A stretch of 56,499 bases of DNA, counting the filler, from Dugesia japonica (lineage: Eukaryota): assembly GCA_001938525.1 (NCBI GenBank). It is 4 parts of 4 records of this genome, joined end to end, with 100 filler letters (N's around TTAATTAATTAA, not from the genome) between each part and the next. Parts side by side here need not be neighbours in the genome. Positions count along the whole stretch, not along the records: positions 15,474 to 26,129 come from MQRL01520607.1; 3 more parts are not named here. One strand, given 5' to 3'. Each line of letters opens with the position of its first letter. Position 1 is the stretch's first letter. The notes under the pieces are model-generated. The model had not been told where the DNA came from. It did no database searches and saw nothing but the letters and a program-made list of their open reading frames with translations. Positions 8,471 through 56,399 of this stretch are shown here, piece after piece. The position numbers and the translations under genes were made by a program.

Positions 8471-9074
8471 CGACTTGCTTTTCAACACTGCTCACAGTGG
8501 TTTTGCGTAATATTGCAGCTTTCAATTTCTCATATGGATCCATTTCATGTGACAAGTCCACTATATTTGGTGGCAGACTGATAAGAAAGTGAAAGTATTT
8601 TGTCCTTTAATTTTGTATCTTTGATCGCTCAAAAGCTGCATCCACTTAGGCAAACCAATTTGCTAAAAAGTAATTTTGTCTTGGACGTGGTTTCCTTAGC
8701 TACTTCTGACACCATAATTGTTAGCTGTAAATTCTGATTTAGCCATAATAATAACTTTTTGAATTGGTAATGTTTATTTCAATAACAATATTTAAACAAA
8801 TCATTTTATTTGTTTATTAGTATTAAAATATTTATACTATACTATATTTTATTAATCGATCCTAACTGTGCATATTTTAGTTTTATTAATTAATTTTTTT
8901 GTAATTGACAACCACCTGTACATATTTTATTTCATAATTTCCTTTGAAAAAGCAGGTGTATTAAACATTTTGTTACTATTGAAATCAAAATTAACAATCA
9001 AAGCACTCATGCATGTCAAAATTCTATGAATGAATGATTTCAATTTACCGGATATTATAACTTCTTTATATAAA

Positions 9075-9959
9075 TTAGTCACTACATCTAACAAGAACAA
9101 AATCCTGTTCCAACAGCAGAACTGCCTTTAGAGGCAAGTTTTTCTGCATCAAATGTTTTTGTACTTCTATTACAAATTCGTCATGGAACCATTCTTTAAA
9201 AAGCACTCTTGTTTGACACGCATTTTTTGATGAACGGTAGTGCATGTTAGGTAAAGCCGCATTTTTGAAACAGCGTGGACTTTTAGAACGCCCAGTAATC
9301 ATTAACGGTAGTTTATGATGCCCAGTTGCATTGACACACCCCATTATGGTAATCAGTTCTTTGCTGATATTTCTACCTGGGACATTTCTTTCTTGATTTG
9401 TCACTAAAGTTTTTGAACTCAAATTTTTGAAAATTAATCCTGTTTCAGCTGCGTTGTATATTTGCTCAGGTCCTAATTGTCGAATATTAGTCTTAAAACG
9501 TTCAATAAATTCAGGTACAGCAGAATCATTAGCGGATAATTTTTCTCCACTTATTTTGAGAATCTGAATTGCATGCCATTTTTTAAATTTTTGAATCCAT
9601 TCCTGACTGGCTGAAAACGAAATATCAGAGTTCAAATCCCGATGGAATTCTAACGCTTTGATACTAAGCATATCATCGTTGATTATGTTAAGTTTGAGTC
9701 TCTCATTTAAAAACCACTGATAAAGGGTGTTTTCAATATCCGGAACTTTAACTGTAGAAATTCTCTTAATTCTGTTTGTAGACTGTATAGAGTTCTTTGC
9801 GAATTCTTGAATACTTTCTTTATTATTCTTGATCTTTGAAATTGTACTTTTGTTTACACCATATTGTGCTTAAATAATATTAGTTTTGGTACCATCGTTC
9901 ATTGCAGTCAAGATCTTACATTTGTCCTCAATTGTTAGTTTTTGTTTTCTTTTGCTCAT
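9075..9959 (-). pseudogene. Tigger/pogo (CENP-B/Jerky-like) transposase, one in-frame stop, 3' truncated
   Basis: ATG at 9959 begins MSKRKQKLTIEDKCKIL (HTH_psq), followed by LYQWF..R, FSASQEWIQKFKKWH, IYNAAETGL, ITIMGCVNATGHHKLPLMITGRSKSPRCF and KAVLLL (DDE_1). There is a TAA at codon 30, and similarity is lost before the second and third catalytic residues. Confidence 0.92.
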
Positions 9960-11050
9960 AATGGACCTAGCAAACGTTATTTTTGAATATCTTTGATTAA
10001 AGTGTTTAAAATTGAATTACAGAGTACTTACTATATATGTAGCTTCCTTAACAGTAAAAAACCTTAAGTATAATAAATTTAACGAAATCAAAATTTTTTT
10101 TAAAATTTAACAATTTAAACGTCTTCTGTTAGGATATAATATAATAAAAAAAACAAATATTTTCGAAGGTTCCTTTTCTTGAAGCAATTACGTCTGAACA
10201 AAAGTTCCTTCTTACGTTAGTTTATTTTTGTGACAAGTTTCTTTTTGCGAAGTTGCTTTATTTGAATCTTTACAACTAAAGGATGCATTATTTTTGCACC
10301 AATCTAAGATATATATATACATGACATTACTTGAATTTCTGTCCACTTGAACAATATTTTGTTCTTGTTAAATGTGGTGGCAAATTCATATAAAGAAGTT
10401 ATAATATTTGGTAAATTGAAATCATAGAATTTTGATATGTCATGAAATCGACTGAGTGCTTTCAGATTGTGAAGTGTTGTTATATCTGTTATGAACACAT
10501 TGTTTTCAGAAATTGGTTTAACATCAGTGCTTCATATTTCCAAACAAAGAAATTTTATATTTGATTGGGAGTATATAAATTTTCAATGGTTATTTCTTAG
10601 TTTTTTTATTATTGGCGTTTCTTAATCATTTTTCACATTTTTCCCAAGTTCCTTTTTTGATATGGAATAAAGGTATTGTCGATTATCGGCGCTCAATCAT
10701 CATTTTATCCATGTATCTTTGAAAGGTTTGAGATGCTATTTTTAAACCAAATACGATTTTTAGATATTCGTAAAACTATTTATCTAACTATCTATTTATT
10801 TCTATTTATGTTGTGAATTATGCATAAAGTAATTGTAAAGAAATTTGGATTAAGATTGGTGTATATTGAGTTTTGTTGAAATTACTATGGGTAGTGTGTC
10901 GATTTCTCACAAAAATATTTTTAATCTGAAATAATAAATCGATTTTGTGAAAGTATTATTAACTGTGGAAAATTAAATTAGCTAAACAAGGAAATTTTAT
11001 TTATTGTGTAAAGGTGTTTTGTTTTTTTTGGTTAAGGATATTTTGCATGC

Positions 11051-13676: not shown

Positions 13677-15171
13677 ATGTCTCATAATCGATATTTATCT
13701 GATGATAGTACTGAAAAAAGTAAAATTTAAGTATTCATTTTCATTTTCATTTTATTTAATGTTAAATTAAAAATGTCTAATCATTAAAAAAATTATTTTA
13801 GTTTTTCAAAAAGAAAAAGAATGGAAAGATTTGTTATTAGATCAATTGGAAAAAACGAAAATCGAACGTTTTAAAGCTGAAAATTCTTTAAGTGAATTTC
13901 AAGAAAAGTATTACCAATTAGAAATAGATTTTAAGCATAATCTGAATTTGTTAGAGGAACGCGATAAGGAAATAAATGAATTAGAACATGAAAATTCTAT
14001 TTTTCGAGAATCTGTTTATGACAATGAAGAGAAAATCAGTCTTTTTAGTGTTGAAATAGATAAATTGAAAGTTGAATTGAAAACGGTAAACGATATTAAA
14101 GAAGATTTAAGAAATAAAATAAAGCAAATTATAGATAAATCGCATAATGATATACAGATAATTAAAAATGAGAAAGTAAAAGAAATAGAACGAATGAAAG
14201 ATGAAACTGCAAGTATAGTTAAGGAGTTGGAAAGAAAAATCATTCAATTAGAATCAGAAAATAAAGAAAATCAGTATGCGTTAATGGCTGATGTTGAAGA
14301 AACTCTTCGATCAAGAGAAGGAGAAATGAAAAGAAAAACTGAGCAAGTTCATAGTGAAATGTTGAATTACGAATTAAAATATCGGCTGGCAAGTAAAGAA
14401 CTGGATTTAATAAGATCAAGTAAAGCAGAACTGTTAAGAAATTTAACGGTAAAAGAAGACACAATCAGAGAATTGGAAATGAAATTAGGAGAAATAGAAT
14501 TGATAAGTAAAAGTGAGATATCTATCGAAAAAATGAAACGAGACACAGAAGCTTTGAATTTCAAAGAAAAGGAAGCAAATTTATTGAAGGAAATCGAAAA
14601 GTTAGGCAGAAAAGTAAATGAAAAAAATGAAAAATTGAGAAATAAAGTGGATATTGCAAAACGACTTGAAGGTGAAATTAGAGCTGTTATGAATAAAGCA
14701 AAAGAAAAGGAAATAGAGAAAGATAAAGAGAAGGAAATGCTGGAAATAGAATTGGATAGAATNGAAAATAAAAATAAAGAATTGGAGAATTTAATCGAAA
14801 AGGAAAGGGGATTATTATCAGTGAAAAACACAGAAATTGCGAGATTAGTGTCGAGAATGACTGAAGAAAACTCAAAAAAAGAAGGTGAACTAAGAAATAT
14901 GAAACTGGAAATGGATAATTTGATTCAGCAATTACGAACAAAACAAGAAGAAATGTTGGAGTTGAGAAATGAATTGGAATATGCGGTTTGTAAAGATTTG
15001 GAAATGAGTAAAAAGAAGGTAGGAGAAAAAGAAAATTGGGAAACGAAAATTGAACGTGTTAGAATTGAAGAAATGGCGAAAGTTGAAGGAATGATCAAAA
15101 CTTTAACAAAATGTCGCGATGAAAATTTTGCTGAAGTTCAAGAATTACGAAAACAACTGAAAGAAAAGTAA
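13677..15171 (+). CDS. Large E/K-rich coiled-coil protein (exons 13677-13719 and 13802-~15167), probably 3' incomplete
   Basis: Uninterrupted 446-aa heptad-rich ORF. An upstream ATG exon (MSHNRYLSDDSTEK) splices in frame through an 82-nt GT-AG intron. The ORF ends at AA/GTAATT, a plausible donor just before the contig break. The family cannot be identified by eye. Confidence 0.75.
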
Positions 15172-16785: not shown

Positions 16786-17069
16786 AAATAAAAAAAAATT
16801 AAAATAAAATGAATGAATACGGTATACATCAATATTTACCAATAATTTTAATATAGACAAATGAGAATACATAAATATAAGATAAGATTGGTCAAGAATA
16901 AGCAAGATCGAAAAGATAATATATAAGCACATGCATATAGGTAATAATTAATATAATTAGTTATCAGCAAAATGTTAAATAGTTTGTTATTCAAATATTT
17001 TAAACAAATGTCTCTTGATAGTATTTGGATTGATCGAAGGTTGTTTGAAGGATAACTGGATTGAATTGT

Positions 17070-17900
17070 TTAGTCTAAGAAATTTTTGTATTGCTTTGAC
17101 ACATTTAGGTACTGGAAATTCTTTTATTTTTTCTGTATTCCTCGGGTTTGGTTCTCTACCCTTATCTGATATTTGATTTCCTAAGAACGCGACTTTGTTC
17201 TTGGTTCAATCGCATTTAGTAGGTTTAACTTTTAAATTCCAGTGTCGAAGTTTAACGAAAACTGTTCGAAGATCCTCTATGTGTTCTTCAAATGATGTTG
17301 AGAATGTTAATGGATTGTCTATATATACCATACAATCTGCTATGCCATGTGTGACAAAATTCATGCATCTCTGAAATGATGCTGGTGCATTAGTTAGACC
17401 GAATTGCATTCAATTAAATTGATATAAATCGCGTCCTGCTGTAAATGCAGTCTTTTCCTTATCTTCTGGTTTGATTTTTAATTGCCAATATCCGCCTTTT
17501 AGATCGAGTGTTAAATATATTATTGTTCTGTACAACAACAGTAATAATTCGTTTATTTCAGGCAAAGAATATGTGTCCTTTTTTGTTTTGGCATTCAATT
17601 GTCGGTAATCAATACAGAAACGTGTTGTTTCATCTTTCTTTTTAACCAATACTACTGGAAAATGCGAAGGTGAACAGCTAGGTTCAATTACCTTTGCGTC
17701 TAACATTTTCTTAATTTCTGCATCATTAAACTGTGCAATTCTGTATGGTTTTAATTTTACCAGGTCTTCATCGATTAACGGAATTGTATGTATTTTGACG
17801 CCACATTCTCCTAATTCATCATCCGTCCATGCAAATATATTTCTATATTCTTCCAAGAGATTTAGTAGTTGTTCTTTTTGTTCCGCTTATATGTTGTCAG
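17070..17900 (-). pseudogene. Ty3/Gypsy reverse transcriptase (RNase H and integrase missing)
   Basis: PVVLVKKKDETTRFCIDYRQLN, TLDLKGGYWQ, KTAF, MQFGLTNAPASFQR, VYIDN (YxDD variant), KPTKC, VAFLG and FPVPKCVKAIQKFL. Confidence 0.95.
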
Positions 17901-18269
17901 AATTGACTTGAAATGATCTCTCTACCTCTGTCGGTTTACTTTCTGGTATATAACTTTTATAATCCTCTTCCACGGGAGGGAATTCTACCATGCCCTTTGA
18001 TTCCGAGTCGTCTTCTGCGGTTTTCCTTCTTCTTGCTGGACGAAATTTAATACGGGAATCAATGTTCCTAATTGTGAATTTGAGTGTATTATAATATCTT
18101 TATTTGAGAAATTTACTGCATTGACCAACACTTTCTCGTTATCTTTTACTATCACGAGTTCTCCTGGTGCTGGCAATTTATATTTCTGTGAGAACTCATT
18201 ATATGGTTTTTGAGTATCGGCCTCTCCTTTTACTTTTGACTTGTAACTTTGATAATTCAATTATCCTGT

Positions 18270-18540
18270 TCTTTAATAGTTCCCAAAATACATGTTTATG
18301 TTATATCCATTACTGTCATACTGTAATACTGAATTTCCCTTGTAGGATACCTCACAGGGTAATTTTCTGATTAAATTGACTGATACGCCATCTACTGCTC
18401 TAGTTGTTTGATCGCTGATAAGTATTCCTTTTCGTTGTTCATTGGATAAGCTGGTGTTATTTATTATGGATAGTGTTGATCCCGTATTTAGAAGTGCGTT
18501 AACTTTTTGTCCATTTAATTTTATATCAATGCCGAATCTT
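18270..18540 (-). pseudogene. Retropepsin-like aspartic protease 2
   Basis: RFGIDIKLNGQKVNALLNTGSTLSII...TRAVDGVSVNLI...CILG. It is in frame with ORF 18561-19205 after a single TAG. NTG lies at 18480-18488. Confidence 0.85.
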
Positions 18541-18893
18541 GGTCCGCCAGGACCGAATGCCTAAAAAACTTTCTCTTTGATATCACTACTTGCTTGTATT
18601 TCGTTTGAATTTTCGTATTCTTCTATATGAATTTGGTTGATATCCTCGTAATCATCCAATGGATCTCCGTGTATTCTGTTGAGTGTAAAATTCTCCCATT
18701 TTCCGGCTAAATTTGATATTGGAGGTGGCATTTTGTTTATGTCATCATGATTTTGACCGCTGTCGTAAGTTGCCGTTGGTGTTTTTCTCACTCGATTTCT
18801 TTTGTTATAGTTTCGGTTTATTCGTTTATTATTGAAATTATCTCTACTAGCTTGTTCTTCCGGCCAAAGTTGACTTGGAACTGCATTTCTGAA

Positions 18894-19055
18894 ACATTCA
18901 TTTTCCTTATGACCTNNTATTCCACACTTGTAACATCGTGATGATTTTGCTATGCATATTTTTTCTATATGACCCAATTTTCCGCAGTAATGACATTCAG
19001 ATTTTGATAATTGACATTGTGACGCTTTATGTCCTTTTTCTCCGCATATTGCACA
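18894..19055 (-). pseudogene. Three CCHC zinc knuckles (nucleocapsid-like)
   Basis: CAICGEKGHKASQC, CHYCGKLGHIEKIC and CYKCGIxGHKENEC at exact 20-aa spacing. Confidence 0.95.
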
Positions 19056-19159
19056 AGGTGTAACTTGTTGAATAACTTTTGGTGATTTATTATTTTCGTT
19101 CGATTCCTTGAATATTACCAGTTGATTTAAGTTAATTATGCCATTATCTAGTACTATTG

Positions 19160-19440
19160 GCAGTAAATCCAATCCCAATATACAACCGTAAGCTAATTTA
19201 TCCATTACCGCTAATGTGTGTCAAATTTTTGGTGCTTTTTCTCGTTGAATTTAGCATTTTATCTGTCCGAGTGGGTAGAGAACTTGTCCGTTCAGACTAT
19301 TGACCCTTAATTTTGTCCCTTTCATTGGTCTGTGTGCTTGTGGTAGAAGTGCATCCGGATGTATCATCGATATACTTGCTCCTGTGTTGATCAGTGCTGT
19401 TAGTTCTATGTCGTTTATTTTTATTTTCATTAGTAAGGCA
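19160..19440 (-). pseudogene. Retropepsin-like aspartic protease 1
   Basis: LLMKIKINDIELTALINTGASISMIH...VNSLNGQVLYPLGQIKC*...VMDKLAYGCILGLDLL, all in one frame. NTG lies at 19380-19388. Confidence 0.88.
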
Positions 19441-20189
19441 TCTCCTCCCACTGCTGTTCCTGTACAGACTGTTCTTGTTTCTAAGTTTTGACTGCTCTGC
19501 ATTGTTAGTGATTGTCGGTTTCGTATCGGTGGTTGTGTATTGTCTTGTAATATCATGGAGCTTCTTGACCTCATAATGTTTTGCTGTACTATTGGTTCCA
19601 TTTGATGTGGCACTGGAGAATTTATTGGTTTCCCTATTGTTTGATCTGTTAAAACTGAATTCATTGGCATTGTCCAATTCGGATTTGGTGGTGTATTTGA
19701 AAATTCGTATAATCTAGGTACTCGTCTCAATTGTGTTGGATTTTCCATTAGATAATATAATCCGTCATTACCTATTATCCCTGTATTGGGTACTTGTAGA
19801 TTTCCTAGATTATAGGTTTGTGCATTTCTTTGATACATATCTTTGAATGATTTTTTAATTTTGCTAATTTTTGATTTCCTTTTGGCTTTTTTCTCTTGTT
19901 TTCTGTCTTTTCGCACAACCTCTTCGTAATCTGGAGCTTTTTCTCTGTAATAACTTGTTGATTGAACATTTTCTCCCGATTTATTTCTATCACTGCTGGT
20001 ACTATCTTTCCATTTTTGTCGTAGCTGATTTTGTAGAACTTTTAAATATGATTTTTTATTTTGTTCTCTAGTTTCCCCTTCGATGCATATTTTTTTGATT
20101 TGTGGTCCAATTTTTTGATCTGATCTAAGTATTTTGCTCATTTTCTTAAGGAATTTCTATATTTGATGAATATCCTTTGTGTGACTGCT

Positions 20190-22083
20190 TAGTATCATCG
20201 TCTTTGCCTAGAACGGGAATATTCCTGTCATTAATTTCTAATTTTTTTGTTTTTCTTTTCAGTATATATTAAAGAACGTGAACATCTGTGTGATGGCTAC
20301 TCTCACGATAGATATAATTACTTAATTATTTAGATATAAATTCCTGTCATTGCTTGGCCAAATATGATGAATTTTTCCCACATCTTTTTCATAAACTTGT
20401 GTATTGCATGTTTTAAGTGATCTGGTGATAATAATAGATCGTAATTAGGTCTTCCATTGAATAACGTTCTGGTAGCTATATGTACTATATTTGATAATAT
20501 TTGCATTCTTTTTACTGGGAAGAGCAATATGTTTACGAGCTCTAGCTAAATCGGCTGAGCTATAAATTCCATTTTCTGCTACTTTTAGAGATTCAAATTT
20601 TTCTCCACCGTTCAATCTGAGCAAAGAAAACTTATGAGGTTTCGGACCCCATGTGAATCTATTGGGAAAGCTGATCCATTTTGCGTTTGGAATTAGATAC
20701 ATTGGTCCTAAAATATTAGAACAGTTTATTTGATTTGGAATATAGTGAATCGGTGATATTATTTTTGCGACTGATTGTACATATCTTGTTCTATTTTATG
20801 CCAAATTTCTAGTTTGTTATAATATATTTCTCGGTCTTTCGGGCTTGGAGTCATTATGGCTGACATTTCTTTGCACTGATTAATATACATTACTTTTCCT
20901 ACGATTCTGCAAATTGTCCTTTACCAAGAGGAAGTAGTGGTGATACATTATCAGGATTCGTTATTGCCATTGATAATTTTGTTTTCAATATTTCTTCGTT
21001 TAATACACAATCATTCTGTACCAAATCGTGATACATCTTTTCCACATAGGCTTATACTTTATGATACAGGAAATCCATTTTATTATTAGCATACAGATGT
21101 AGTTTTATATCTTCGTTCCTAATGACATGCTATGCTTCTGCTAACTTTCGTTCTGAGATATGTAAGCCTTTATAATTTCTTTTATATACGATGCCTTCAC
21201 ATTTTGATATTGGTTTATCTTTTATTAGTCTGATTCCATCTTTCCCGCTGACTGACATTAATACAATTGATGTGTCTATCCACTTCATTTCCAATTTTTG
21301 TGGTCCTTCCTGGGCGGCTCTACCTGCCTTCTTACTCTCTGTGATTTTCTTTTCCTTTGGTTCCTGATAACGCCTTCCTCGATATTAGTTGAATATTACT
21401 TCCTTTGAAAAGGTAATTTTACATTCTTTTAGATCTACATCGTATACTAGTGTTGATATTTCTGAACTACACGATTTGTCTGACACTCTAAACGCTGGTT
21501 GAGTTTTCATTGTTAAGTCATCTACATCCAATAGTACTTTAAATTCTTTCAATTCCACTGTGTAACTTTCTATCACTACCACATTTTTTGCTACTACTCC
21601 ATCTATCGTATATGAACACGTTGTACATTGTCCATCTACTGCTGATATTGATCCTACTGTGATTAACTTTTGACTGGTGACAAATCCATTTTTAGCTGTT
21701 ACCGTGAAGCCTGTTTTTACGTCTATCTTTCCAAACGCAAATCTTTGCTCGAATTGTTGTCTAGTTAATAATACTGGTTTCTTTTCTAATCTCGGGTCAA
21801 TTACTGATGACTAACTTTTATATCCACAATTTAACACAAAGGTTGCTACAGTTACTATGCATTCTTTTATCATAGCTTGATAATAATCTGACTTCTGATA
21901 TATTTGATAAACCGAATTATTTTTTAAAGACACAAACTGTTTTGGGTTCGCATCAGGACACTCTTCTGTATCTACTAAGGAGTAAACTTTCTCTCCAAAA
22001 TCCATTTCATCGCAATCAAACTCTACCATTCTTCATGTTCCTAATAATATTAACAACCTTAACATGATTAAAATCGGTAACAC
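20190..22083 (-). pseudogene. Chuvirus-like (class III, gB-type) envelope fusion glycoprotein with signal and TM region
   Basis: Hydrophobic VLPILIMLRLLILLGT is followed by EFDC..YSLVDTEEC..YQIYQ..ECIV..NCGYKS*SSVI, GSISAVDGQC, LYANNKMDFLYHKV*AYVEKMYHDLVQNDC..LKTKLSMAITNPD, RIVGKVMYINQC, INCSNILGPMY, AENGIYSSADLARARKHIALP and MWEKFIIFGQAMTG plus a hydrophobic TM. The motif order matches chuvirus glycoproteins as I know them. Confidence 0.85.
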
Positions 22084-22204
22084 GGATCTTGTATTTGATC
22101 CACCTCTTGCTTCTGACACTGAACCTATAGTACTTTCTAACAAATCCTTTAACACTCTTTTTACCTTTGCTGTAAGGTCTGTTTGATTACAATTCTGTGG
22201 TGAC

Positions 22205-22605
22205 GCTGATTTAATGAAAGCTGATCATCCACCCTCTTGATGGATGTATGGTTCTATTGTTCTCTGTATGATTGCTGTCATCCGGAGCTGTCCTCCGTCT
22301 GGGAATTTCGCTGGTTTTCTTTTGACAATGTGTATATAGCCTTGTGAAGTAGAAATGCAATAGTCACTAGTGCTCTGCCTTTTGTAATTCCATCACGCAA
22401 TAACTCACATACTACGCTTTCATCTTCTACTCTCGGTTTAATAGCAAATCTCCATTTTGTTGATGGTTTTCTTATTAAAATTGGTTTAATTACTTGTGCC
22501 AAAATTTCTACTTCAGAAGGTGTTTCCGATTTGGATATTAAAGATCGTAATTCCGGACAAAGTATTTTAATAAGGTCCTTTCCAATTTTATTAGTCGATA
22601 ATGAT
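22205..22605 (-). pseudogene. Bcl-2-like domain (BH3-like, BH1, BH2)
   Basis: BH1-like VVCELLRDGITKGRALVTIAF, then after one frameshift LRMTAIIQRTIEPYIHQEGG*SAFI (BH2, W to TGA). Compare human BCL2 ELFRDGVNWGRIVAFFEF...[25 protein letters not shown], which has near-identical spacing. Upstream (RLI)KIGKDL is BH3-like. Confidence 0.75.
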
Positions 22606-22609
22606 CCGT

Positions 22610-24120
22610 TGACATATTTGTATTTTGATTGTTGACCTAACGTCTTGTGTTAGTCTATTTAGATGATTAGTTTTAGCTTCTAATTCTTTTGTTTTGAGTT
22701 GATATTCTGTCGGTTTTATTTGTATTCCGTTTTGATCATAACTGGGTTCGACACGTGGTCTGCATCGTTTTCTGCGCTCCATCAATGTTTCTGCATTGCG
22801 TAATTCTCTTACTTCGAAATTCTTTTCAAATGCGCTGCTGGTATTGATGACTTATGTTGTATTCATTGTTCCTTGTCTTAAGAAATCAAAAATAGGGTCG
22901 TCTTCTGGTAGTACTTCGGCTGTCATTACTTTTTTAGTATATAAATCTGCATCATCTATACCGTATATTAGAGTTTTTTGTCTGGTTACTTCAATTTTGC
23001 TTATTTTTGATTTTGGTTGTTCTATTTCTATGATTTCAATATCATTGTTTACACTTGGGAGTCTGGATCTCCACGCTGGATGATCAAATATAGTTTCCTC
23101 TGGTTAGATACTTTCTTAATTATCATCTAAGAGTGCTGAATCTTTTCTCCCCGTTGTATGGGTACTTGTTCTTTCTGGTGGATCAAAAGTAGCTAATAAT
23201 TGTCTAAACGATCGTATATATTTGCCAGTACTTTGTTTTTCCGTTGACTTGATTTGAGTTTTAATATTTTCTGCTTCTGNTTAATTTTATAGGGTGGAAT
23301 CTTTATCTTTAAGCTCGCTGCTTATCGATGATTGAATTGGTTTGTTTTTTATTCTAGTACTGACTCTGCTGGTACTTGGTTGATCATCTATTTCTATTAT
23401 TTCTGGATTTTCATCTTTTTTCTTTAACCAATGTTTTGGTGGTATAGGGCGTACTGTAATTGCGTTCGATCGTTTTGAGTTGAGTCCTTGCATACTAATA
23501 ATTTCATCATTTTGTATTGATCTGCCTCGTAATTGTTAAAATTTGGTTCAACCCATGGTAATCTCTGCTTTATTTTTTTCATTCTTTCGTATGCTAATAC
23601 TTCTATATTTGAAGTTGCGCTATTTGGATCTGTTTTTTTAAGTTCAAACTTTCTTGGAGTGTTTTCTTCCATTTCCATTCTACGTCATTTCTTTATTAAA
23701 TTTTCTAGATTTTCATGGAACCAATATGTTCTTTCTTTAAAATGTTGAAGCCATTCGACTACTAATCGCAATTCTTTAAGTGACACATCCTCTTTACATG
23801 CCTTTTTAGCTACTCGTATTATTTCTCTCTTAATGACTGGCTCTCTTCTCAATAATTGTACGAGTTCATCTAGAATGTTCTTTTGTACATCTGCTGCTTG
23901 GCCTGATTTTACTTCATATTCTGTTTCTAGTTCTGACAAGCTTGGGTCTGATTTTATTGAACCTGTCTTTTGAATTTTACTTTTCCAAGACTCTTCGATA
24001 TATTCGATGTTTAACTCGTCTGGTAACACTGGGTTGAGTACTTTGGCAAATTTTCGTATTATTTTCTCTGATAATTTTGAGATTCTAGATTTGGATATGT
24101 AAGGGTTTTCTTGTGGCTNA
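22610..24120 (-). pseudogene. Unidentified N-terminal part of the polyprotein (~500 codons, helical plus low complexity)
   Basis: ORFs 23685-24170 and 23424-23678 share a frame. ORFs 23287-23493 and 22591-22785 share a frame that is open between them apart from a few stops. Confidence 0.6.
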
Positions 24121-24144
24121 TCATTACTGTTTACATATAGTTTC

Positions 24145-25560
24145 AAATTCAAGCAATACTTATATGGCAAACGATTTATCGCTAGAACTGATCACAAAGC
24201 TCTGATTTTTCTGAACACAACAAAAAACCGATAAGTCCTCAATTTCAAACTTGGATGGCCAATCTTTCAGAGTATGATTTGGATCTTTAATATAGAAAAG
24301 AAAGTGAGCTTAATAATGCAGATGCTTTATCAAGAAGCTCTGATGTATTATGTTCACAGTGTGAAACGAAACACAAAGATGCCAAAAGCAGTAAGTCAAA
24401 GATTAAATACATAAATAGTCTGGACCAAACATTGAATTTTGTAGACAATATTAAAATTAATCAGAACGACGACATAAATTTCAACGAAATTAAAAGGTAC
24501 TTAATAAGTGAAATTACGTAATGCTCAGAAATCTGTAAAAATATCTACCTGTATAAAAGTATTGAAAAATTGAAAATTATTGATGATTTACTTGTTAAGG
24601 AAGACGGTAAAAATATATTAATTTTAGTACCAATAAATTTTGCTAATGAATTAGTATTAATGATTCACAAAGATTTATGCCATCTTGGAGAAAAAAAGAT
24701 TTTTAATTATCTTAAGGATCATTGTTTTTGGCCACTAATGATGAATACAATACAAGCGTGTTTAAAACAATGTATGGTTTGTGCTAAAAGGAAAATTACT
24801 CAAAGTCGTACTAAAGAAACACTGATTCCTAGACAAAGTCATTATTTACTTGAGCAAATTGTCGCAGACATTGCATATATAGACAAAACTGAGTCTAATA
24901 AAAAGTATCTTGTTATTGTAGACAGATTTAGCAAATTAGTTGGTTTTACAGCAATATCTAATTTGGATGATCAGTCTGTATTTAAAGTTATTTTGAACAA
25001 TTGAATATATCGTTACGGAAAGCCAAGCAGTATTTTGACAGACAGAGGAAAGAATTTTTAATATAATTTTATAAAAGAAAAGAGGTCAAAACTGAATATA
25101 ATACAAGAATTCAGCTCACCTTATCAACACCAATCAAATGGTTTGGTAGATCGAGTGATACGAACTGTACGAGATATAATGACGAAATCAATAAAAAATA
25201 AATGCGAAGAAAGGACTTAGTTTGAATTACTGCGAAGAATTAAATTCAGCATCAATGCAACTCAACAGAATTCGTCTAAATTTTCTCCTTTTGAAATAGT
25301 TTTTGGCCGGAAAATAAATANGCATTCTAAATATAACAATTCAGAAACCGGTTAAACAGAAATAATTGATGAAGCTAGAATAAATTTAGAAAAAGCTGCT
25401 ATAAAAATGAACGTTTTCGAAAACGAAAAAAAGAGGATCTCGGAGTTTTAAGAAGAGAGAGTAGGTTTTGGTACGAGTGGAATCAAACGTAAAGATGAAA
25501 TAAAACAACGAAGAATAGAATGGTTAAAGAAGTGGACAGTTTCTTAAAGAAGGGGAAAGT
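24145..25560 (+). mobile_element. Ty3/Gypsy fragment: RNase H C-terminus, integrase, PPT
   Basis: FKQYLYGKRFIARTDHKAL, NADALSR, HKDLCHLG..CMVC (HHCC), IVADI, VIVDRFSK, LTDRG, SPYQHQSNG and FSPFEIVFG. PPT AAGAAGGGGAAAG near 25547-25559. Confidence 0.92.
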
Positions 25561-27090: not shown

Positions 27091-29023
27091 ATCGAAGCTA
27101 TCAAAAGTTTTGAGAAACCCAAATGCGTAAAGAACCTGAGAAGGTTCCTCGGAATATGCCATTATTACAGAAGATTTATTAAGAATTATTCAAAGAAATC
27201 AAGAACCCTAGAAGATTTATGTGGGAGCAAAAGCACGAAGCTAATATGGTCAGATGGATGTGAGAAAGCTTTCGCAGAAATGAAACAAGCACTGCTAGAA
27301 GCATCTATTTTAGGATTTCCTGATATAAAGAAGACATTTATTTTAGATCCTGACGCCAGCTTCGACGTAATAGGAGCGGTCTTATCACAAAATGATGATG
27401 ATGGAAGAGAAAGAGTTATTGCTTACGGCTCACACGCAAGGACATCACATGAGAAGGGTTAGTGTGCCACACGGAAAGAATTACTAGTAATCTATTACTT
27501 CTGCAACCACTTTAAACATTTTTTATATGGAAAATAATTCATAACTAGAACAGATAACAAAGCCATCGTATTCATGAAAAAGACGAACAAACCGATAACA
27601 CTTCAATTCCAGACATTGATGAATTACCTTAGCAGTTAGACATTGAACTAATATAAAGACAAGGATAAAAAATACAAACGCAGATATGCTCTCAAGAATG
27701 AAATGTGGAAAGTGCACTCAATGTCAAATGTAACATGAAGATCCAAAGATTGGGAAGATGAAAACAAGACAGATAGAGATGTAAAAGATAAAGAGATGTA
27801 AATGGCAAGAAGAAATAGAGGAAGGCAAACTAATCAAACGAGTTATTCAAGAAGAAAAGGATTCAAAGTATAGAGTCAAAAGTAATATAGTGAAAACAAG
27901 TGATGGGAAAATTTGGATTTCAAAAGAGAAAAGAATATCAAAGATCAAAGAGATACGTATATTGTTAATATATGCAGGAACAGAGAAAATGATCAGCTAT
28001 ATAATCAGAAACTACGACATGGAAAAACTAAAGAAGACAATAACAGAAGTGATAAGACAGTGTGAAGCGTGCCAAAAGAACAAAGTTAATACAGTGGCAA
28101 CAAAAGAAACAACAGTAAAATTAAGCGCAAATTGTCCATTTGAAAAGATATATATGGACATATGTGGGCTTTTTCGAGAGACTATGAACAGACTAAGATA
28201 AATATGTTGAATAATAAACCAATACAGTCGATACGTAAGCCTAACGGCAATAAGCAAGCAAGATGATGAGACAATTAAAAACGTGAAATTGGAAGTTCGC
28301 GTAGTCAGCTGTAAGACATTTGAATCGAAAAACTTCAAGAATATAGAAATACACTTTTCAAGTCCATACCATCACAATACAAATAGAATTATAGAGAGAC
28401 ATTCCGCACAATTAGAGACTGTATTAACGCAGCCGCAGATGAAGATAGAAAGAATTGGAGTAACATGATACCGGAGATTAAATACCTGATGGATGCGACA
28501 AGGCAAAATACATTGGGGATATTACCAGCAGAATTAGTATTCAGTAGGAGAATTCACAGAGAAAAATGGTTTAACAGCCATAAAGATGACAAAACGTTAA
28601 TGGAAGAAACAACTACAAAAATACAATTGTAAGTGGGAGACGAAGGATTGATTAAACTATAAACTAGAACAAAAGACAATGAAAGATACGCTGGTCCATA
28701 CAAGTTCAAGGATAAGGTACATGAGAGAAGATATCGTATATGAAATACAAAGGGAAAAGAGCTAGAAAAGAATGTAGAAAAGCTTAAAAATTCTTTTATT
28801 CGAGGGGGGTGTAAGGATTAAAAATTAAAAATCGCAATTTAAAGTTTAAAGAAAATGTTTTAAAAGATTTCAAGAATTTTTTTAAATATTTAAAATGTTT
28901 GTTTAAATATTCAGCTTTTAAAAACATAGTTTTTTGGAAGATTTTAAGATTTGAAATTTTGTGTTATAAATATAAATTTATTGAATTTAATGGACTTTTA
29001 TGAAAGTTTATAAGTAACTAACA
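27090..29023 (+). mobile_element. Ty3/Gypsy 3' half: RT connection, RNase H, integrase, PPT, 3' LTR (~28810-29023)
   Basis: LRRFLGICHYYRRFI, FILDPDASFDVIGAVLSQ, CEACQK, PFEKIYMDICG and SPYHHNTN. PPT GAGGGGGG at 28802-28809 is followed by TGTAAGG...TAACA. Confidence 0.9.
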
Positions 29024-30402: not shown

Positions 30403-32350
30403 AGTAGGTAGATAGAGCACACCGGCACAATTTTAAAAATCACCCCCCTCTCTTCCCCTGGGGAAGGCTTGGAAACACATTACGCTTGAGCTGCGTTTTT
30501 GAGACATGATTTTTGTGCTCGTATTTTTTCTAAGATTTTTTGGATCAAAACATTTTTGATCGGATCTGTTTTATATCCTGAAAGTGTGTGTGTGTGTGTG
30601 TGTTAGAGTGGAAAAAACGAGGAGGAGGAGCTAGAGATCTTGGAGATAATTTTTTTGTAGTTTTAAAGATTTGGTTGTGGTTGGACAAAAATTTGGTCTA
30701 TATATTGTTTAAAGGACTTATGAGTTTGGATGGATGGTTTGTGCTACAAGAGTAGTGGCACACGGGCACAGTCGTATGAGTTATCGTGGATAGTTTTTAT
30801 TGAGGCTGTAGGTTTGTATGTGGTTGATGGAATTTGTTGGTTGAAGGTTTTTTGGAGAGGTAATGTGATGGGAAAGATGTTGGTTGTCAAATGTGCTTTG
30901 ATTTTTTATTTTAGGGCTACTATTTGATTGGTTTATTTTGTAAGTAGTATAAGTGTGTTAAAAAATTTTCGTGAGGTGGAGGTTGGTATGTGTGGAAANA
31001 GAATTAATTATCGGATTTTAAAAGATTTATTTGAAATTTTTCTGTCGGGTGGTTATGACGTCATAATATTTGGAAATCTTTATTTTGGTTAAAATTGCTG
31101 TATTTTGCTTAAATTGATGAATTTAATGGAAGTAATTATATTTTTGAGTATTTGATATATTTTTGGTTATTGTTTCGTTATTTTGAACAGGGAAGGGTTG
31201 TTTTTTAATATTTTCGAACAGGGAAAAGGGAAGTCTTGATATTTTTGAAAACCGTTTTGGCGGCAAATTCAAAAAAAATATTTTTGGCGGGAAATTTAAA
31301 AAAAATATTTTTGGCGGGAAATGCAAAAAAATATTTTGTTTGGAAATTTTTCATTTCATTAGGGGGAAATCTTTTTAATATAATTAAATTAAATTTAATT
31401 TAATTTAATTTATTTAATTTATTTATGTAAGAGATGGGCAGTCTTGATTTTTTTAAGATATTATTACATGATATCGGGTAGTCTTGATATTTTTTAAAAT
31501 ATTATTACAAGAAATTAATGCATAGTATGGGTAGTCTTTATATTTTGTATGGTATGAGCAGTCTTAAAATTTTGAATGTGGAGCCGCTACATTTAACATA
31601 GGATGGGACAGACTTCATATTTGCAAGGTATGAGGCAGTCTAAAATTCAAAGTCATGTGATTTTCAGTGTATGTGTGTTGTATCTGAGTCGCCACTGAGT
31701 TGCATACCTATTGCATTTGTTTTTTAAAAAATCAAAATGGCGGCTATGTTGAGTTTTATAAACTTGCTTTTTGGTGAGAAATTTTTTTAAAAATTCTCAG
31801 ACTTGTGATTTTCCGTGTAAGTGTGTTGCATCCGAGTTGCAACTGAGTCGCATACCTATTGTATTTATTAATAAAAAAAATCCCAGGCATGTAATTTTTA
31901 TTGTATGTGTGTTGGAGCTGTAATACTTCTGAATGGCATTTATGAAAATATGTCTATCAAAAAAAAACTTCAAAGAGGGGAGTCTTTGTGATATTTGCAT
32001 GATACAATATTCAAATTGAAACTTTTCTTTACAAAATGATAAAAACTTAGAACTATTTTCTTAATAAAAAACATTAACTAGGTGATTTTCTATAAAAACA
32101 TATTAGTGATGCAATATTTAATAAAAGTATCATTAGTGTTGCAATTTTTAATAAAAATACTCATTAGTGTTGCAATATTTAAAAAAGTGTCATTAATGTT
32201 CCAAGTTTTAATAAAAATTCACATTATTGTTGCAATTTTTTAATCAAAGTCTAATTAGCGATGCAATGTTTTAGAAAAAACATGTTGATTGAGAACATTT
32301 CTGAAAACATGGAACTTTTTTCAAAAATTCATGGATTCTTTCAAGACATA
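30403..32350. repeat. Polinton A left terminal region with tandem arrays
   Basis: Collinear with 42747-45390. Contains (TG)n, TTTTGGCGGGAAA x3, GCAGTCTTGATATTTT arrays and ~31-bp CATTAGTGTTGCAAT arrays. Confidence 0.88.
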
Positions 32351-36518: not shown

Positions 36519-38380
36519 AATGAATGTAACTTTGCTCGTAAAAGTTACAAACTTCTCGTTGCTACATCGCCAGAGGTTCATTCTTTTCTTCAGATTCTCC
36601 ACTGTCTTTCCGTAGAGCAAATTGTTCAACAATTTATAAAAGTCCTTTTCAAATTTTGTATGTAATGCTGCTCTTCTTGTTGAATTTGCATTGATATAAT
36701 TAGCGAAAATTTCCGTCTCCTGGAATCTGATTATTCCATGAACAGTTGTTACCTGAGCTCTCAGCTTTATTTATAATTTAAGTAATCTCAAATAGATTAC
36801 ATAATGCTACTTTGGCTCATGTGCCATTAAAAGCTTCTTTACTCTCAATCCAGGTGGACATTTATGTTCCGGCGCTAACGGTAATTGATTCAACCTGTCA
36901 TGATGTTCGATAGGTATTTCTTGATAAATTTCCAGCAAGTATCTCATATGATCATTATTTTCACTATCCAATATATTTTTATATGCTTCTTCTATATCGT
37001 CTACAAATTAAAAATCTTTATATGGTAAAGGCTGTGTTAAGGCCCAACCATATAAATTATTTACATCAATGTAAACTAGTGAGGTATTCTCATCTACCTA
37101 AATGTAATAGATATTGATAAATATTATACCCCCACAAATTCCCGTCTCAAATAATTTATGTATTTCTGGATCCTGCAGCAATTCTAACGGCCTATCCATC
37201 GTCTTGAGAGCACTTGACCAGCTCAATCCATGTAAGGAAACAAATCTAAGCGGCTGAAGTCCATGCTCCTCAAGTGTCTTTCTTCTAAATGTTTTAAACA
37301 CATCAACCAACAAATGAATGTCTAGCTTCATGTAATGTAACATATATTCCAGCAGATTATTGCTTCCAGATTTCATCCATGTCAACTTTGCAATTTTGTA
37401 TTCAGATTCTGTTATCTCTGGCCATTGCGGTGGTAGACATGTTTGATTAAGCAGCATTTCGTATGATGTTGCGAATTTATAAGGGAATATACCTTTACTC
37501 TGGTGTGCATATTGCGAAAATTGTGATGCATGCAATAAACATTTCTCAAGTGTTGCAGTTAATTACGCCAAGGAACTGCTTAGGAATTGGTATGAATCTA
37601 TAAATCGCAATGTATTATTAACACCAACATGTGCAAACATTGCAAGAAAATTTTCTGTTGTCTGTGCAATTTGCTTGAAATCCCAATGTTTGATTCAAGG
37701 GATACTTAATTAGATGGTGCGAATCATAATCCTTAAAATGATGAAATACCACTGGCAACTCTATCCTTATCTTCCGAGATAAGTTGCACCTTTTGCACGC
37801 AGCTCCAAGGTACTTGCCAGTAAAATGATAATGATCTCGAACTAGCTTTTTATTTTCCTTTTCACACACGTAATAATGTGTACTATTCATAAAAGCATCC
37901 TCTACTGATTTTTACCAATTCATTTCCATTTTCATATTCATCTTGTACCAGGGTGCAACCACATTTTTCGCAAATTGATCGATTTACTGGATAAAATCAA
38001 CCATACAATTTTCTCCAGAAAAAGAATAATATTTGTATTATTTCGTAGAATCCATTAAGTGAATTAAGAAAAGCCCTACCGCTATTGGAAAATGCTTTAC
38101 TCGAAAATCATGTTTTGGTATCAGGATCGCTTCAATATCTGCGTAAATAACAAACGCCTGTGTTATTGTTTTTCCAAAATTCTTGAACCACAATTTTTCT
38201 CTTCAGGCATTGTATAAAAGGTTGTTTTTTCTGTGATTTGTGAAAATAAAGCCACGTGTTTATTAAATGCAGACTGTGTTTTGAATCCGTGAAGACATTT
38301 AGGACGCCATATTTTTTAGACTTTCTATTCATAAGTTTTTTATAATTCAAGTCGTGATACATGGTGAAATTTTATGTGAG
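36519..38380 (-). pseudogene. Polinton B pPolB, N-terminal/central part with an endonuclease-VII-like insert
   Basis: FVIYADIEAIL, VRDHYHFTGKYLGAACKRCNL, PVVFHHFKDYDSH, FIDSYQFL, KGIFPY, YMKLDIHLLVDVF, YIDVNNLYGWAL and NNLLYGKTVEN. Confidence 0.93.
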
Positions 38381-42746: not shown

Positions 42747-45390
42747 AGTAGGTAGATAGTGGTACATGGGCACAATTTGGCAATGAGCCAAAATTCGGGC
42801 ATAATTATTTTTAAGCAGTTATCGAGCCCCCCAGGGGGGGGTCAGAAACACATTACGCTTAAGCTGCGTTTTTTAACATTGATTTTTGTGATCGATTTTT
42901 TTTCTAAGATTTTTAGGATCAAAAAACTTTTGATCGAATCAAGTTTTTTTTATCTGATTAGTTTTTTTGATCCTGAAGGTGTGTGCGTGTTTTTTTAAAT
43001 TTTAAATTTTCTTTTTGTTTGGGTTNNNNNNNNNNNNNNNNNNNNNNNNNNNNNNNNNNNNNNNNNNNNNNNNNNGAGGAGTAGCTGGAGATTTTTTTTG
43101 AATTTTGAAGTTTTATTTCTTGTCGGACAAAAATTTGGTCTATATATTGTCTATAGGACTCATTACTTTGGATGGATGGTTTTCACCACAAGGGTAGGGG
43201 CACACGGGCACAAAATATGAGTTATCGTTGGTGGTTTTTATTTTGTGTTGTTGATGGAATTTGTTGTTTGATGGCTTGTTGGAGTGGTAATGTGATGGTG
43301 AAGATGTTAATTGTCGAATGTGCTTTGATGTTTTATTTTAAGGGCTACTTTTTGATTGGTTTATTTTGTAAGTAGTAAAGATGTTTTAAAAAGTTTTTTC
43401 GTGAGGTGGAGGTTGGTATGTGTGGAAAGAGAATTAATTATCGGATATTATANNNNNNNNNNNNNNNNNNNNNNNNNNNNNNNNNNNNNNNNNNNNNNNN
43501 NNTGGAAAGAGAATTAATTATCGGATATTATAAGATTTATTTGAAATTTTTCTGTCGGGTCGTTATGACGTCATTGATTTTTGAAATAATTAATTTGGTA
43601 AAAAAATCTGTATATATGGCTTAATTTGATGAATTTAATGAAAGTAATATCATTTTTGAGTTTTTGATGTATTTTTGGTTATTTTTTCGTTTGTGTGATC
43701 GAGGAAGTGTTGTTTTGTTAGATTTTCGACTGGGAAAGAAGAGAGTCTTGATATTTTTGAAACGTTTTTGGCGGGAAATTTAAACAAAAATTATTTTTGG
43801 CAGGAAATTCAAAAATTATTATTTTGGCTGGAAATTAAAAAAAATATATTTTGGTATGAAATTGAAATAAAAGAAATCTTTTATTGCAATTAAATAAAAT
43901 AAAATTTAATTTAATTTAATTAAATTACTTTTTTATGTAAGAGATGGAGTAGACTTGATATTTTGCATGCAGAGTCTCTATATTTTGCATATTATGGGCA
44001 ATCTTGATATTTTTAAAGATATTATTACAAGGTATGNGCAGTCTTGATATTTTTAAGATAATATTACAAGACATTTATGCATGTTATGAGAAGTCTTGAT
44101 ATTTTTAAGATGTTATTACAAGGTATAAGCAATCTTGATATTTTTTAAGATAATAGTACAAGAAATTTATGCATGTTATGGGCAGTCTTGATATTTTTTA
44201 AGATATTATTACAAAATATGGACAGTCTATATATTTTTTAGATAATATTACAAGAAATCTATGCATGTTACGGGCAGTCTTGATATTTTTTAAGATATTA
44301 TTACAAGATATCAACAGTCTTGATATTATTTAAGGTAATATTTAAGATATTATTACAAGATATCGGACAGTCTTGATTGAAGCATTANNNNNNNNNNNNN
44401 NNNNNNNNNNNNNNNNNNNNNNNNNNNNNNNNNNNNNNNNNNNNNNNNNNNNNNNNNNNNNNNNNNNNNNNNNNNNNNNNNNNNNNNNNNNNNNNNNNNN
44501 NNNNNNNNNNNNNNNNNNNNNNNNNNNNNNNNNNNNNNNNNNTACGTGATTTTCAGTGTATCTGTGTTGTATCTGAATGGCATACCTATTGCATTGTTTT
44601 AAAAAAAATTCAAAACGGTGGCTACATTGAGTTTTAAACATTCTCAGACTGGTGATTTTCAGTGAATAAGTGTTGCAGCTGTAATGCTTCTCAGTTGCAT
44701 TTATGAAAATTTATCTATCAAAAAAAGACTTCAAAGAGGGAAGTCTTTGTGATATTTACATGTTAAAATATATCTATCAAAAAACTTTAAAGAGGGGAGT
44801 CTTTGTGGAAAAAAATAGATATACTACATGATAAAAATATAACTATTAAAAATAAACAAAGAGCAGAGTCTTTGTAATATTAACATGATAAAAAAATATC
44901 TATCAAAAAAACCTCAAAGAGGGGAATCGTTGCGATATTTGCATAATAAAATATAAATTTTGTTAAAATATAGAAATAAAAAAGTTCAAAGCGGGGAGTC
45001 TTTGTGATATTTCCATAATAAAATATAAAAAAGTTCATAGAGGAGAGTCTTTGTGATATATTCATGAATAAATATTCAAGTTAAAACTTTTCATTACAAA
45101 ATTATAAAAAACATAGAACCTTATTCAAAAACATATTACTAGTGCTAATTTTCTTTAAAGAAAATCTCATTACAGTGGCAATTTTTAATACAAAATCTCA
45201 TAACCGATGTAATTTTTATTAAAAATATCATTACCGATGCCATTTTTAATAAAAAAACTCATTACCAATGCAAGTTTTAATAGAAAATCTTATTAGCGAT
45301 GTAATTTTCTATTGAAAAAAAAACATTGACAATGCAATTTTCCAAAATAAAACATATTGGTAATACATTGTTCTTATAAAAATCATATTG
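42747..45390 (+). mobile_element. Polinton C left terminal region (to contig end)
   Basis: It starts AGTAGGTAGATAG and is collinear with 30403-32300, with expanded GCAGTCTTGATATTTT/AAGATATTATTACAAG, GAGGGGAGTCTTTGTGATAT and ~31-bp arrays. Confidence 0.88.
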
Positions 45391-55100: not shown

Positions 55101-56165
55101 ATTCAGAAGACCTATGGATACCAGCTTGTACGAAAAGTGAACAGTAAAACTAATTTAAAAGTCGAAAATTACATTTGTAATATTGAAGCATAATTTGGGA
55201 GACAAAAATAAAATGGGAGAGTGATTGACAAGAGCTTTAAGTATTCTGAAGATTAAAGACGATGATCGGTTATTGAAGATATTTGGAAATAAAGAAGATG
55301 TTTTCATGGCAGATAAATGAGATGTAGGACGCACACATCTGATAAAACACAAACTACAAGTGGTGAACTGATTAACGTTAAACCGTTTAGACAATCAATG
55401 AACTTAGAAGCTATAATTCAAGAAGCTATTTAGAACCTGTTTGAGAATAATATTATCCGGAAATGCAACTCTCCATGGAATACTCCACTGATTTGTGTGT
55501 TGGATAAAAGAAAAGAAACACATAAGAATATGCTTGAATGCGGTAACGAAAAGACCAACCTTTCCGATGCCTAACGTTGATTAAATGCTGTACAAGTTAG
55601 ATGGAGCAAAATATTTCAGTTCAATAGATTTGAGAAATGCATATCTCAAGAAAAAACGGTATTTTCAACAAAGCCGGACAATATTGTTTTAATAGAATGC
55701 TTTTCGGGATTGCAGCGGCACCAGGAACATTTCAGGAGAAAAGTGGTTCGTAGAATCAAAGGAGCCATGGTATATCTTGATGACATACTGATATTTACGA
55801 ACAATAAGGACCAACACTATGAAGTAATTGAAAGAGTATTGACGGAAATAACGAAGGCAGGTTTAAGAATCAATCCAGAAAAGTGTCAGTTTCTACAAAG
55901 CGAAATCAAATTTCTTGGGCACTTAATCAGAAGAGATGGTGTTAGAGCTGATCCGTCTAAAACAGAAGTTGCGAAGCTTCCTAGGAATTTGTAATTACTA
56001 CAGGAAGTCTATAGAAAACTACGAAAGAAAATCAAGGATCTTAGAACAGTTATGTAGCGGACTAAGCAACAAGAAGTTGAAATGAATAGATGAAATAAAC
56101 AATACTTTTGAGGGTTTGAAGAAAGCTCTAATGACTGCGCCAATATTGTGTATTCCTATATTCTG
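49200..56165 (+). mobile_element. Older Ty3/Gypsy element split by the 49714-54672 insertion
   Basis: Gag-like remains lie left of the insertion (weak). Right of it: KVECLLYVGARINFMS (PR), DVGRTHLIKH, SPWNTPL, YFSSIDL, AMVYLDDILIF, INPEKC, FLGH and LMTAPIL. Confidence 0.75.
49714..54672 (+). mobile_element. Structurally complete but decayed Ty3/Gypsy LTR retrotransposon with ~101-bp LTRs
   Basis: The 5' LTR starts TGTTAGAT at 49714 (duplicated across the N gap) and ends near 49928. PBS TGGCGACCA at 49930. Then gag with CFYCGETNHRSINC/CLICGKEGHAFRNC, PR, RT (YLND), RNase H (DTDAS) and IN. PPT AAAAGGAGGGA, 3' LTR 54572-54672, TSD TAAAT (49709-49713 / 54673-54677). Confidence 0.93.
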
Positions 56166-56399
56166 CAACTTACTATTTCCAGAATTTAAAGTAACAAAAG
56201 AAATATGTAAAGAATTCTTCATTTTACAAAAATATTTATTATTTACTATATATTTTATACTTTTCATTAGTATTTCACACATTTTATTGATTTTTTTAAA
56301 CATAATCATGGATGATGATTAATAATTTCAAAATATTTTCTTTAGAAAAGAAATTTAAAACAATCATTAAAATTAACGATAATTAATAATTCATCTAGT

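Follow-up and report, generated by a model that had tools for sequence, protein, structure and literature searches.

A single protease is generally assumed to process the polyproteins of retroviruses and LTR retrotransposons, and retropepsins normally occur as one domain per element, act as homodimers, and cut themselves out of the polyproteins in which they are made. A 56,499-nucleotide stretch of Dugesia japonica DNA (assembly GCA_001938525.1; four parts of four records, joined with filler, and here called the window) raises the question of why the minus-strand retroelement within it carries two retropepsin-like segments, termed PR1 and PR2, on either side of three zinc knuckles, and whether the Asn that replaces the catalytic Asp in both of them has any meaning.

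The minus-strand retroelement is a decayed Ty3/gypsy copy with a fusion-type envelope inside its Pol polyprotein (the Burro or GAG-ENV-POL type), a dead member of a multi-copy family that is broken throughout. It lies in an AT-rich, gapped draft sequence (19 to 35% GC across 2-kb bins, with many N runs) and is itself interrupted upstream by an N at position 24119, which marks a contig break, and ends near 17060, ahead of RNase H. Its modules begin with an envelope ectodomain, followed by the membrane anchor and the cytoplasmic tail of the envelope, and continue with PR1, the three knuckles, PR2, a linker, and reverse transcriptase (RT), as collected in Table 1. The PR-RT order is present in this copy, with no RNase H or integrase downstream on the minus strand; the RT, which contains stops and reads YIDN at its motif (17325-17314), is gypsy-type and clusters with gypsy-order polyproteins in a tree. 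No direct repeats flank the element among the 20 of 40 repeat families listed. Just past the single N, on the strand opposite to the element (24120-25560, plus), are an RNase H end and an integrase start that are 23 to 27% identical to the RNase H-integrase region of the relatives described below, and which belong either to another element or to a mis-oriented contig.

Table 1. Features of the minus-strand retroelement, in window coordinates, from the upstream end of the element to its RT
Feature	Position	Strand	Basis
Candidate Bcl-2-like domain (weak), split across two frames, just upstream of envelope	22177..22427	-	
Envelope, viral fusion glycoprotein PF24664	20145..22083	-	Pfam E 1e-29 and 2.9e-9; tblastn to P0157, P0027
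Tail after anchor: basic, then Pro/Gln-rich	19440..20156	-	PR1 frame; tblastn frame -2 from envelope end on
PR1, extra retropepsin	19125..19440	-	Pfam; clade profile E 2e-19
Three CCHC zinc knuckles, nucleocapsid-like	18894..19055	-	Pattern match 3/3; Pfam zf-CCHC E 1.5e-7
Stop codon private to this copy	18561..18563	-	Absent in 98.5% and 99.8% of other-copy depth
PR2, Pol protease	18281..18545	-	Clade profile E 2.5e-12; 38.6% identity to P0157 protease
PR-to-RT linker, conserved	18027..18206	-	Profile from 7 relatives' linkers, E 1.1e-7
RT	17065..17943	-	Pfam RVT_1 E 6.6e-28; 50% identical to P0157

The remainder of the window holds several features in their own right. Three further decayed gypsy-type Pol fragments occur on the plus strand (27091-28429, 51716-54129, and 54851-56262), and a Tc5/pogo-like DDE transposase fragment (9075-9869, minus) sits inside 77-nt inverted repeats (9034-9110 and 10349-10425), the whole spanning 9034-10425. 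Two related repeat blocks with internal tandem units (30649-32270 and 43091-45308) are about 12.5 kb apart and 73 to 86% alike. An open frame of 466 codons (13771-15171, plus) has weak coiled-coil matches only, and a fragment (37098-37562, minus) that weakly resembles type B DNA polymerases of viruses or organelles (E 5.5e-5, below cut-off) is possibly a Polinton-like remnant.

Within the element, the envelope match to PF24664 (22200-20250) shares the strand of PR and RT, precedes both, and is disrupted in this copy by stops and frame changes; hydropathy reveals a signal-like hydrophobic stretch at 22083-22027 and an anchor-like one at 20321-20265. The candidate Bcl-2-like segment resembles the pre-envelope part of P0017, one of the relatives (E 0.0009 and 0.002 by phmmer among 11 sequences), which itself matches Pfam Bcl-2 at E 0.00096, below cut-off, and Bcl-xL structures at E 0.01; the segment has no Pfam or PDB matches of its own. 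Still farther upstream, about 500 decayed, coding-like codons (22600-24118, minus) match no family. The original prediction had remarked that no recognisable capsid domain sits directly upstream of PR1, and this holds: capsid families are found neither in the 235 residues preceding PR1 nor in three frames of 22300-24119, and no capsid or knuckle matches fall within 22000-24118, the sequence past 24119 being missing. That remark had been set against the standard CA-NC-PR gypsy order, a comparison that overlooks elements with an envelope in the polyprotein, a published architecture. Because this element is of that architecture, a capsid adjoining the protease is not expected.

Both protease segments are retropepsins and the three knuckles between them are genuine, as had been proposed from the sequence. 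PR1 gives full-length Pfam matches to gag-asp_proteas (E 3.2e-6, with 28.1 bits just short of the 28.2 cut-off) and to RVP (22.0 bits, above the cut-off of 20.7), and its best match in a PDB sequence search is retroviral-like aspartic protease 1, at E 0.25. For PR2, Pfam RVP is below cut-off and covers the first 37 residues only (E 0.0015, 19.2 bits), and the assignment comes from the profile built on relatives, which is matched over positions 2 to 70 of about 103 at the E value in Table 1. The likeness is to Pfam families RVP (PF00077), gag-asp_proteas (PF13975), and Asp_protease_2 (PF13650): domains of some 100 residues with D-T-G and a C-terminal hydrophobic-hydrophobic-G motif. The knuckles follow C-X2-C-X4-H-X4-C at 19055-19014, 18995-18954, and 18935-18894, the third with two unknown bases (18916-18917), and PR1 and PR2 are separated by about 210 residues, knuckles included. 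With Gag lying past the contig break at 24119, these three knuckles may be either additional or relocated ones. The prediction had further placed both proteases in one frame. Their catalytic codons do share a minus-strand frame, but in this copy that frame is closed by three stops (19251-19253 and 19221-19223, both inside PR1, and the stop at 18561), and the CILG of PR2 (18292-18281) is out of frame with its own catalytic motif.

The catalytic codons read Asn in the window copy, at 19386-19388 in PR1 (ALINTGASIS) and at 18486-18488 in PR2 (ALLNTGSTLS), and this is ordinary decay of the copy. We compared four sequencing runs over 18230-19520, among them two DNA runs (X1 and X5) and two RNA runs, of which X14 yielded 45 reads, from diverged copies and too few to gauge expression, and X13 none; differences are those among the 40 of 157 rows listed. 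At 19388, 448,561 of 450,241 depth units from other copies are unlike the window in X1 (99.6%), as are 76,918 of 76,927 in X5 (99.99%); at 18488, the corresponding figures are 283,504 of 283,570 and 74,743 of 74,792. The X14 reads at the two codons are likewise unlike the window (4/4 and 9/9). D-T-G is thus what both proteases carry family-wide, at >99.5% of depth in the two DNA runs, which bears out the suggestion of post-insertion decay and contradicts any extension of the Asn pair beyond this copy. That both domains might be Asn pseudo-proteases across the whole family would have drawn on the rarity of two such hits at a random pair of sites (about a 1% event) and on a third Asp-to-Asn change in the RT; other copies oppose it directly at both codons, and this copy differs from the others at 112 of 1,291 places, with transitions of this kind the commonest (27/112), such that the reading is virtually untenable. 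The context of these transitions is weak (5/12 CpG-type, p 0.024; 8/12 TC-type, p 0.06; 14 of 27 sites visible), and we claim no mutator.

Two of the stops in the PR1-PR2 frame were also traced in other copies. Beside the one at 18561, a run of T and a stretch resembling a hairpin had made programmed read-through or frameshifting a candidate, which we reject because other copies have no stop at this position. The stop at 19221-19223 is absent from >99% of depth in both DNA runs; at 19223, 0 of 4 RNA reads carry the base that the DNA runs show.

The order PR1-knuckles-PR2 is a family trait, without a junction. Contigs matching 18230-19520 number 5,533 and 2,066 in the two DNA runs, they cover 30 of 30 bins in both X1 and X5, and the share that runs on into unlike sequence is 0 in each; absence of the tandem arrangement from other copies, which had been named in advance as the outcome that would tell against it, is therefore not what these overlapping contigs show, since they tile the stretch. 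Loose contig ends cluster at about 18279, where the window copy departs from the others and the end of PR2 is disrupted. No single listed contig spans the entire PR1-PR2 stretch, and colinearity consequently rests on overlapping pieces. This last fact, together with the gapped state of the window and the absence of PR1 and knuckles from the nearest relative, P0157, is what could be said for an artefact or a one-off chimera, in which a nested fragment of another element or a misassembly had brought the pieces together. Against it are thousands of contigs from two studies, which overlap along the stretch without entering unlike sequence, and the single frame that contains the envelope tail, PR1, the knuckles, and PR2, and we regard it as highly improbable.

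P0157 (4,099 aa, JGI/IMG) is the nearest intact relative. A single frame in it encodes the envelope with anchor and tail, then protease, linker, and RT, and finally RNase H and integrase, with one protease and no CCHC knuckles. In an RT tree of 39 sequences (the window, 8 envelope-bearing proteins, and the 30 best-scoring controls), its RT is sister to that of the window (50% identical; FastTree support of 0.997), and in a protease tree, its protease is sister to PR2 (support of 0.912), to which it is 38.6% identical, compared with about 26% for PR1. These placements show PR2 to be, by its sequence relationships, the ordinary Pol protease. Because P0157 has a single protease that groups with PR2, and no knuckles, PR1 and the knuckles appear to be a lineage-specific addition. 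PR1 itself is unplaced in the protease tree, where its support is 0.10. A recent duplication linking PR1 and PR2 is rejected for lack of DNA similarity: the alignment score of 30 is matched by 2 of 200 shuffles, and the proteins are 33% identical over 40 residues and 19% over the aligned part. The two are probably related through an old duplication or a capture, with the catalytic motif retained by both in the family. An accessory-protease clade that appeared in one protease tree (support of 0.972) was lost once P0157 was added and is not counted as evidence.

Relatives were sought by searching 1.84 billion protein representatives with a query consisting of the envelope end, the tail, and PR1, which returned 19 matches, of which 10 contain both envelope and protease, 7 are fragments of an envelope, and 2 have protease only. 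Once cluster members are added, along with two proteins with an envelope that came from the RT search, there are 11 assessable clusters, the count excluding P0010 and P0015, both of which end soon after one protease. By the retropepsin clade profile, 6 of the 11 envelope-bearing clusters contain two to seven proteases, a fraction to be read as an upper estimate, since the query itself contained a protease and summed scores favor multi-protease proteins. These are P0027 and P0018 (two each), P0009 (three, the last cut short), P0014 (three), P0011 (four), and P0029 (seven); P0012, P0019, P0044, P0082, and P0157 have one. All 21 protease domains of the six multi-protease clusters carry D-T-G, as detected with a profile that was seeded on D-T-G domains and may miss degenerate proteases, and proteases within one relative protein share 14 to 51% identity. 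As a control, among the 120 listed of 193 long RT-bearing proteins, 110 have one protease, 9 have none, and 1 has two; two proteases occur in only 1 of 118 envelope-less long RT proteins, and that one is a fused gene model with three RTs.

The arrangement of the added proteases differs among these relatives. P0029 (4,844 aa, ENA) combines an envelope, a C2H2 finger, and ankyrin repeats with five proteases before RT and two past integrase, and lone proteases also follow the integrase of P0014, in both cases among accessory regions. Close pairs, 32 to 57 residues apart, are present in P0016/P0029, P0027, P0018, and P0011, and gaps before RT reach 423 residues. In P0014 and P0029, proteases are separated by C2H2 fingers, and in P0029 by ankyrin repeats as well; CCHC knuckles are found between proteases in none of these relatives, and a PR1-knuckles-PR2 query in word-index protein searches returned no match, hence no outside relative with this exact order. 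The order PR-RT-RNase H-integrase is present in P0157, P0027, P0014, P0029, and P0012, and Gag is present upstream of the envelope in P0011, P0012, P0018, P0044, and P0082. P0157 (residues 2432 to 4099), P0014, and P0027 have a long unannotated extension past integrase, with hydrophobic stretches in the latter two. P0012 (HBK71150.1), an envelope-bearing gypsy polyprotein, is labeled as a Flavobacteriaceae MAG, and probably represents eukaryotic contamination of the bin.

In the RT tree, P0027, P0014, and P0029 form a separate clade (support of 0.974), which excludes P0012 and P0019, each with a single protease. Most simply, this topology would reflect at least two independent gains of proteases; repeated loss from a multi-protease ancestor is a possible alternative.

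What, then, would the second protease do? Through the signal-like stretch and the anchor, the envelope would enter the secretory pathway, with everything downstream forming its cytoplasmic tail, separate from Gag. Since Pol would be the tail of a membrane-anchored envelope and would not follow Gag, it should need cuts of its own and its own route into the particle. We propose that PR1 is a putative second processing enzyme that dimerizes separately and cleaves at its own flanks, thereby freeing the envelope tail from a knuckle-PR2-RT piece, which could bind the element's RNA through the knuckles, for packaging or priming; PR2 would carry out the customary maturation of RT, RNase H, and integrase. 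In the relatives, extra proteases might likewise separate accessory modules such as C2H2 fingers and ankyrin repeats. We assign this reading a probability of roughly 55%. The idea that an extra protease releases the envelope tail was part of the original prediction, and it is plausible in that the predicted topology fits, with the anchor at 20321-20265 and the tail in the PR1 frame. In 5 of 11 relatives, P0157 included, an intact polyprotein from envelope to RT contains just one protease, which implies that a second protease is not required for the envelope-in-polyprotein design.

The same variation in number, from one to seven among relatives with the single-protease ones intact, along with the repeated gains apparent in the RT tree, could be taken to mean that the extra proteases are redundant, arising by easy duplication and keeping activity for self-excision or local concentration while acquiring no new job. 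A dispensable copy, however, should decay or be deleted more often, and the retention of D-T-G by all domains at 14 to 34% identity within one protein needs long selection, and we judge redundancy rather unlikely. The prediction had also raised an intramolecular pseudo-dimer, in which neighboring proteases would be tethered in a single chain and let the polyprotein cut itself without particle assembly, an idea that echoes a model for the origin of two-lobed pepsin. The catalytic motif is kept in both domains across the family, as this would need, and the close pairs of several relatives make it more plausible there than in the window element, in which three knuckles and the full interval of about 210 residues intervene; odd numbers of proteases (three and seven), the widest pre-RT gaps, and lone post-integrase domains also argue against it, leaving it unlikely. 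Finally, proteases might be released against host proteins, such as defense or apoptosis factors, in the manner of other Burro-type accessory domains. Apoptosis- and ubiquitin-related domains are described for Burro elements in the accessible part of PMC6431247, and the proteases of P0014 and P0029 that lie past integrase are in fitting surroundings; PR1, lying between the envelope tail and the knuckles, is well placed for processing of the polyprotein, and a host-directed role seems very unlikely.

The reading that PR1 is a second processing enzyme can be generalized, tentatively and with less than even confidence: envelope-in-polyprotein LTR elements may on several occasions have assembled arrays of two to seven intact-motif retropepsins. 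Each would have a specificity or timing of its own and would serve as a self-excising spacer between envelope, RNA-binding, Pol, and accessory modules, and close pairs may be single-chain pseudo-dimers, surviving intermediates on the way from retroviral proteases to two-lobed pepsins. Several diverged proteases with intact motifs in one chain suggest a different processing logic tied to an envelope inside the polyprotein. Such elements offer natural test material for the release and packaging of a Pol that is tethered to a membrane-anchored envelope and for whether tandem retropepsins can work as single-chain enzymes. The Asn pair, the original point of interest, is of no import, being decay.

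Compared with the usual retropepsin, present as one domain per element, there are two per polyprotein here and up to seven in relatives. We found no description of multi-protease LTR polyproteins in the literature searched, noting that Grohme et al. 2018, Sacco et al. 2022, and Repbase reports may already show several protease boxes; the accessible part of PMC8532177 holds nothing on domain structure. GAG-ENV-POL errantiviruses with an HSV/gB-type envelope are reported from Nematoda, Bryozoa, and Platyhelminthes (Chary and Hayashi, PMC13524379), and the window element, likewise of Ty3/gypsy type, resembles them in that its fusion-type envelope precedes Pol. The main text of that paper uses "protease" once, in a standard Pol scheme, and no multi-protease or post-envelope knuckle arrangement appears in the parts consulted; the term was unmatched in the supplement, by a text search that is unreliable in that it also missed element names present there.

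The closest described system is Burro (GYPSM1), giant planarian gypsy-like elements of >30 kb with an ORF of about 4,900 aa, which, in the available portion of PMC6431247, encode an N-terminal Gag with the knuckles, MATH, BIR, and ankyrin domains, and BCL2-like, in-frame envelope, PR (one), dUTPase-like, and RT domains. The window element shares with Burro, as so described, a mononegavirus fusion-type envelope in frame before PR-RT and a conserved PR-to-RT linker, and has a weak, indirect candidate for the BCL2-like motif that precedes the Burro envelope; the linker occupies the slot called dUTPase-like in Burro, a match by position that leaves its identity putative (PMC6431247). The size, LTRs, Gag, BIR, MATH, and ankyrin domains of Burro are not visible in the window, where the copy is truncated on both sides. 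P0157 is similar in running from envelope to integrase in one reading frame and differs in its one protease and lack of CCHC knuckles. Relative to the portion of PMC6431247 that describes Burro, the window element has a second protease and three knuckles after the envelope. The element itself is of a known kind. Its two proteases with knuckles between them are real and shared across the family, and point to a probable repeated multiplication of proteases in envelope-in-polyprotein gypsy elements.
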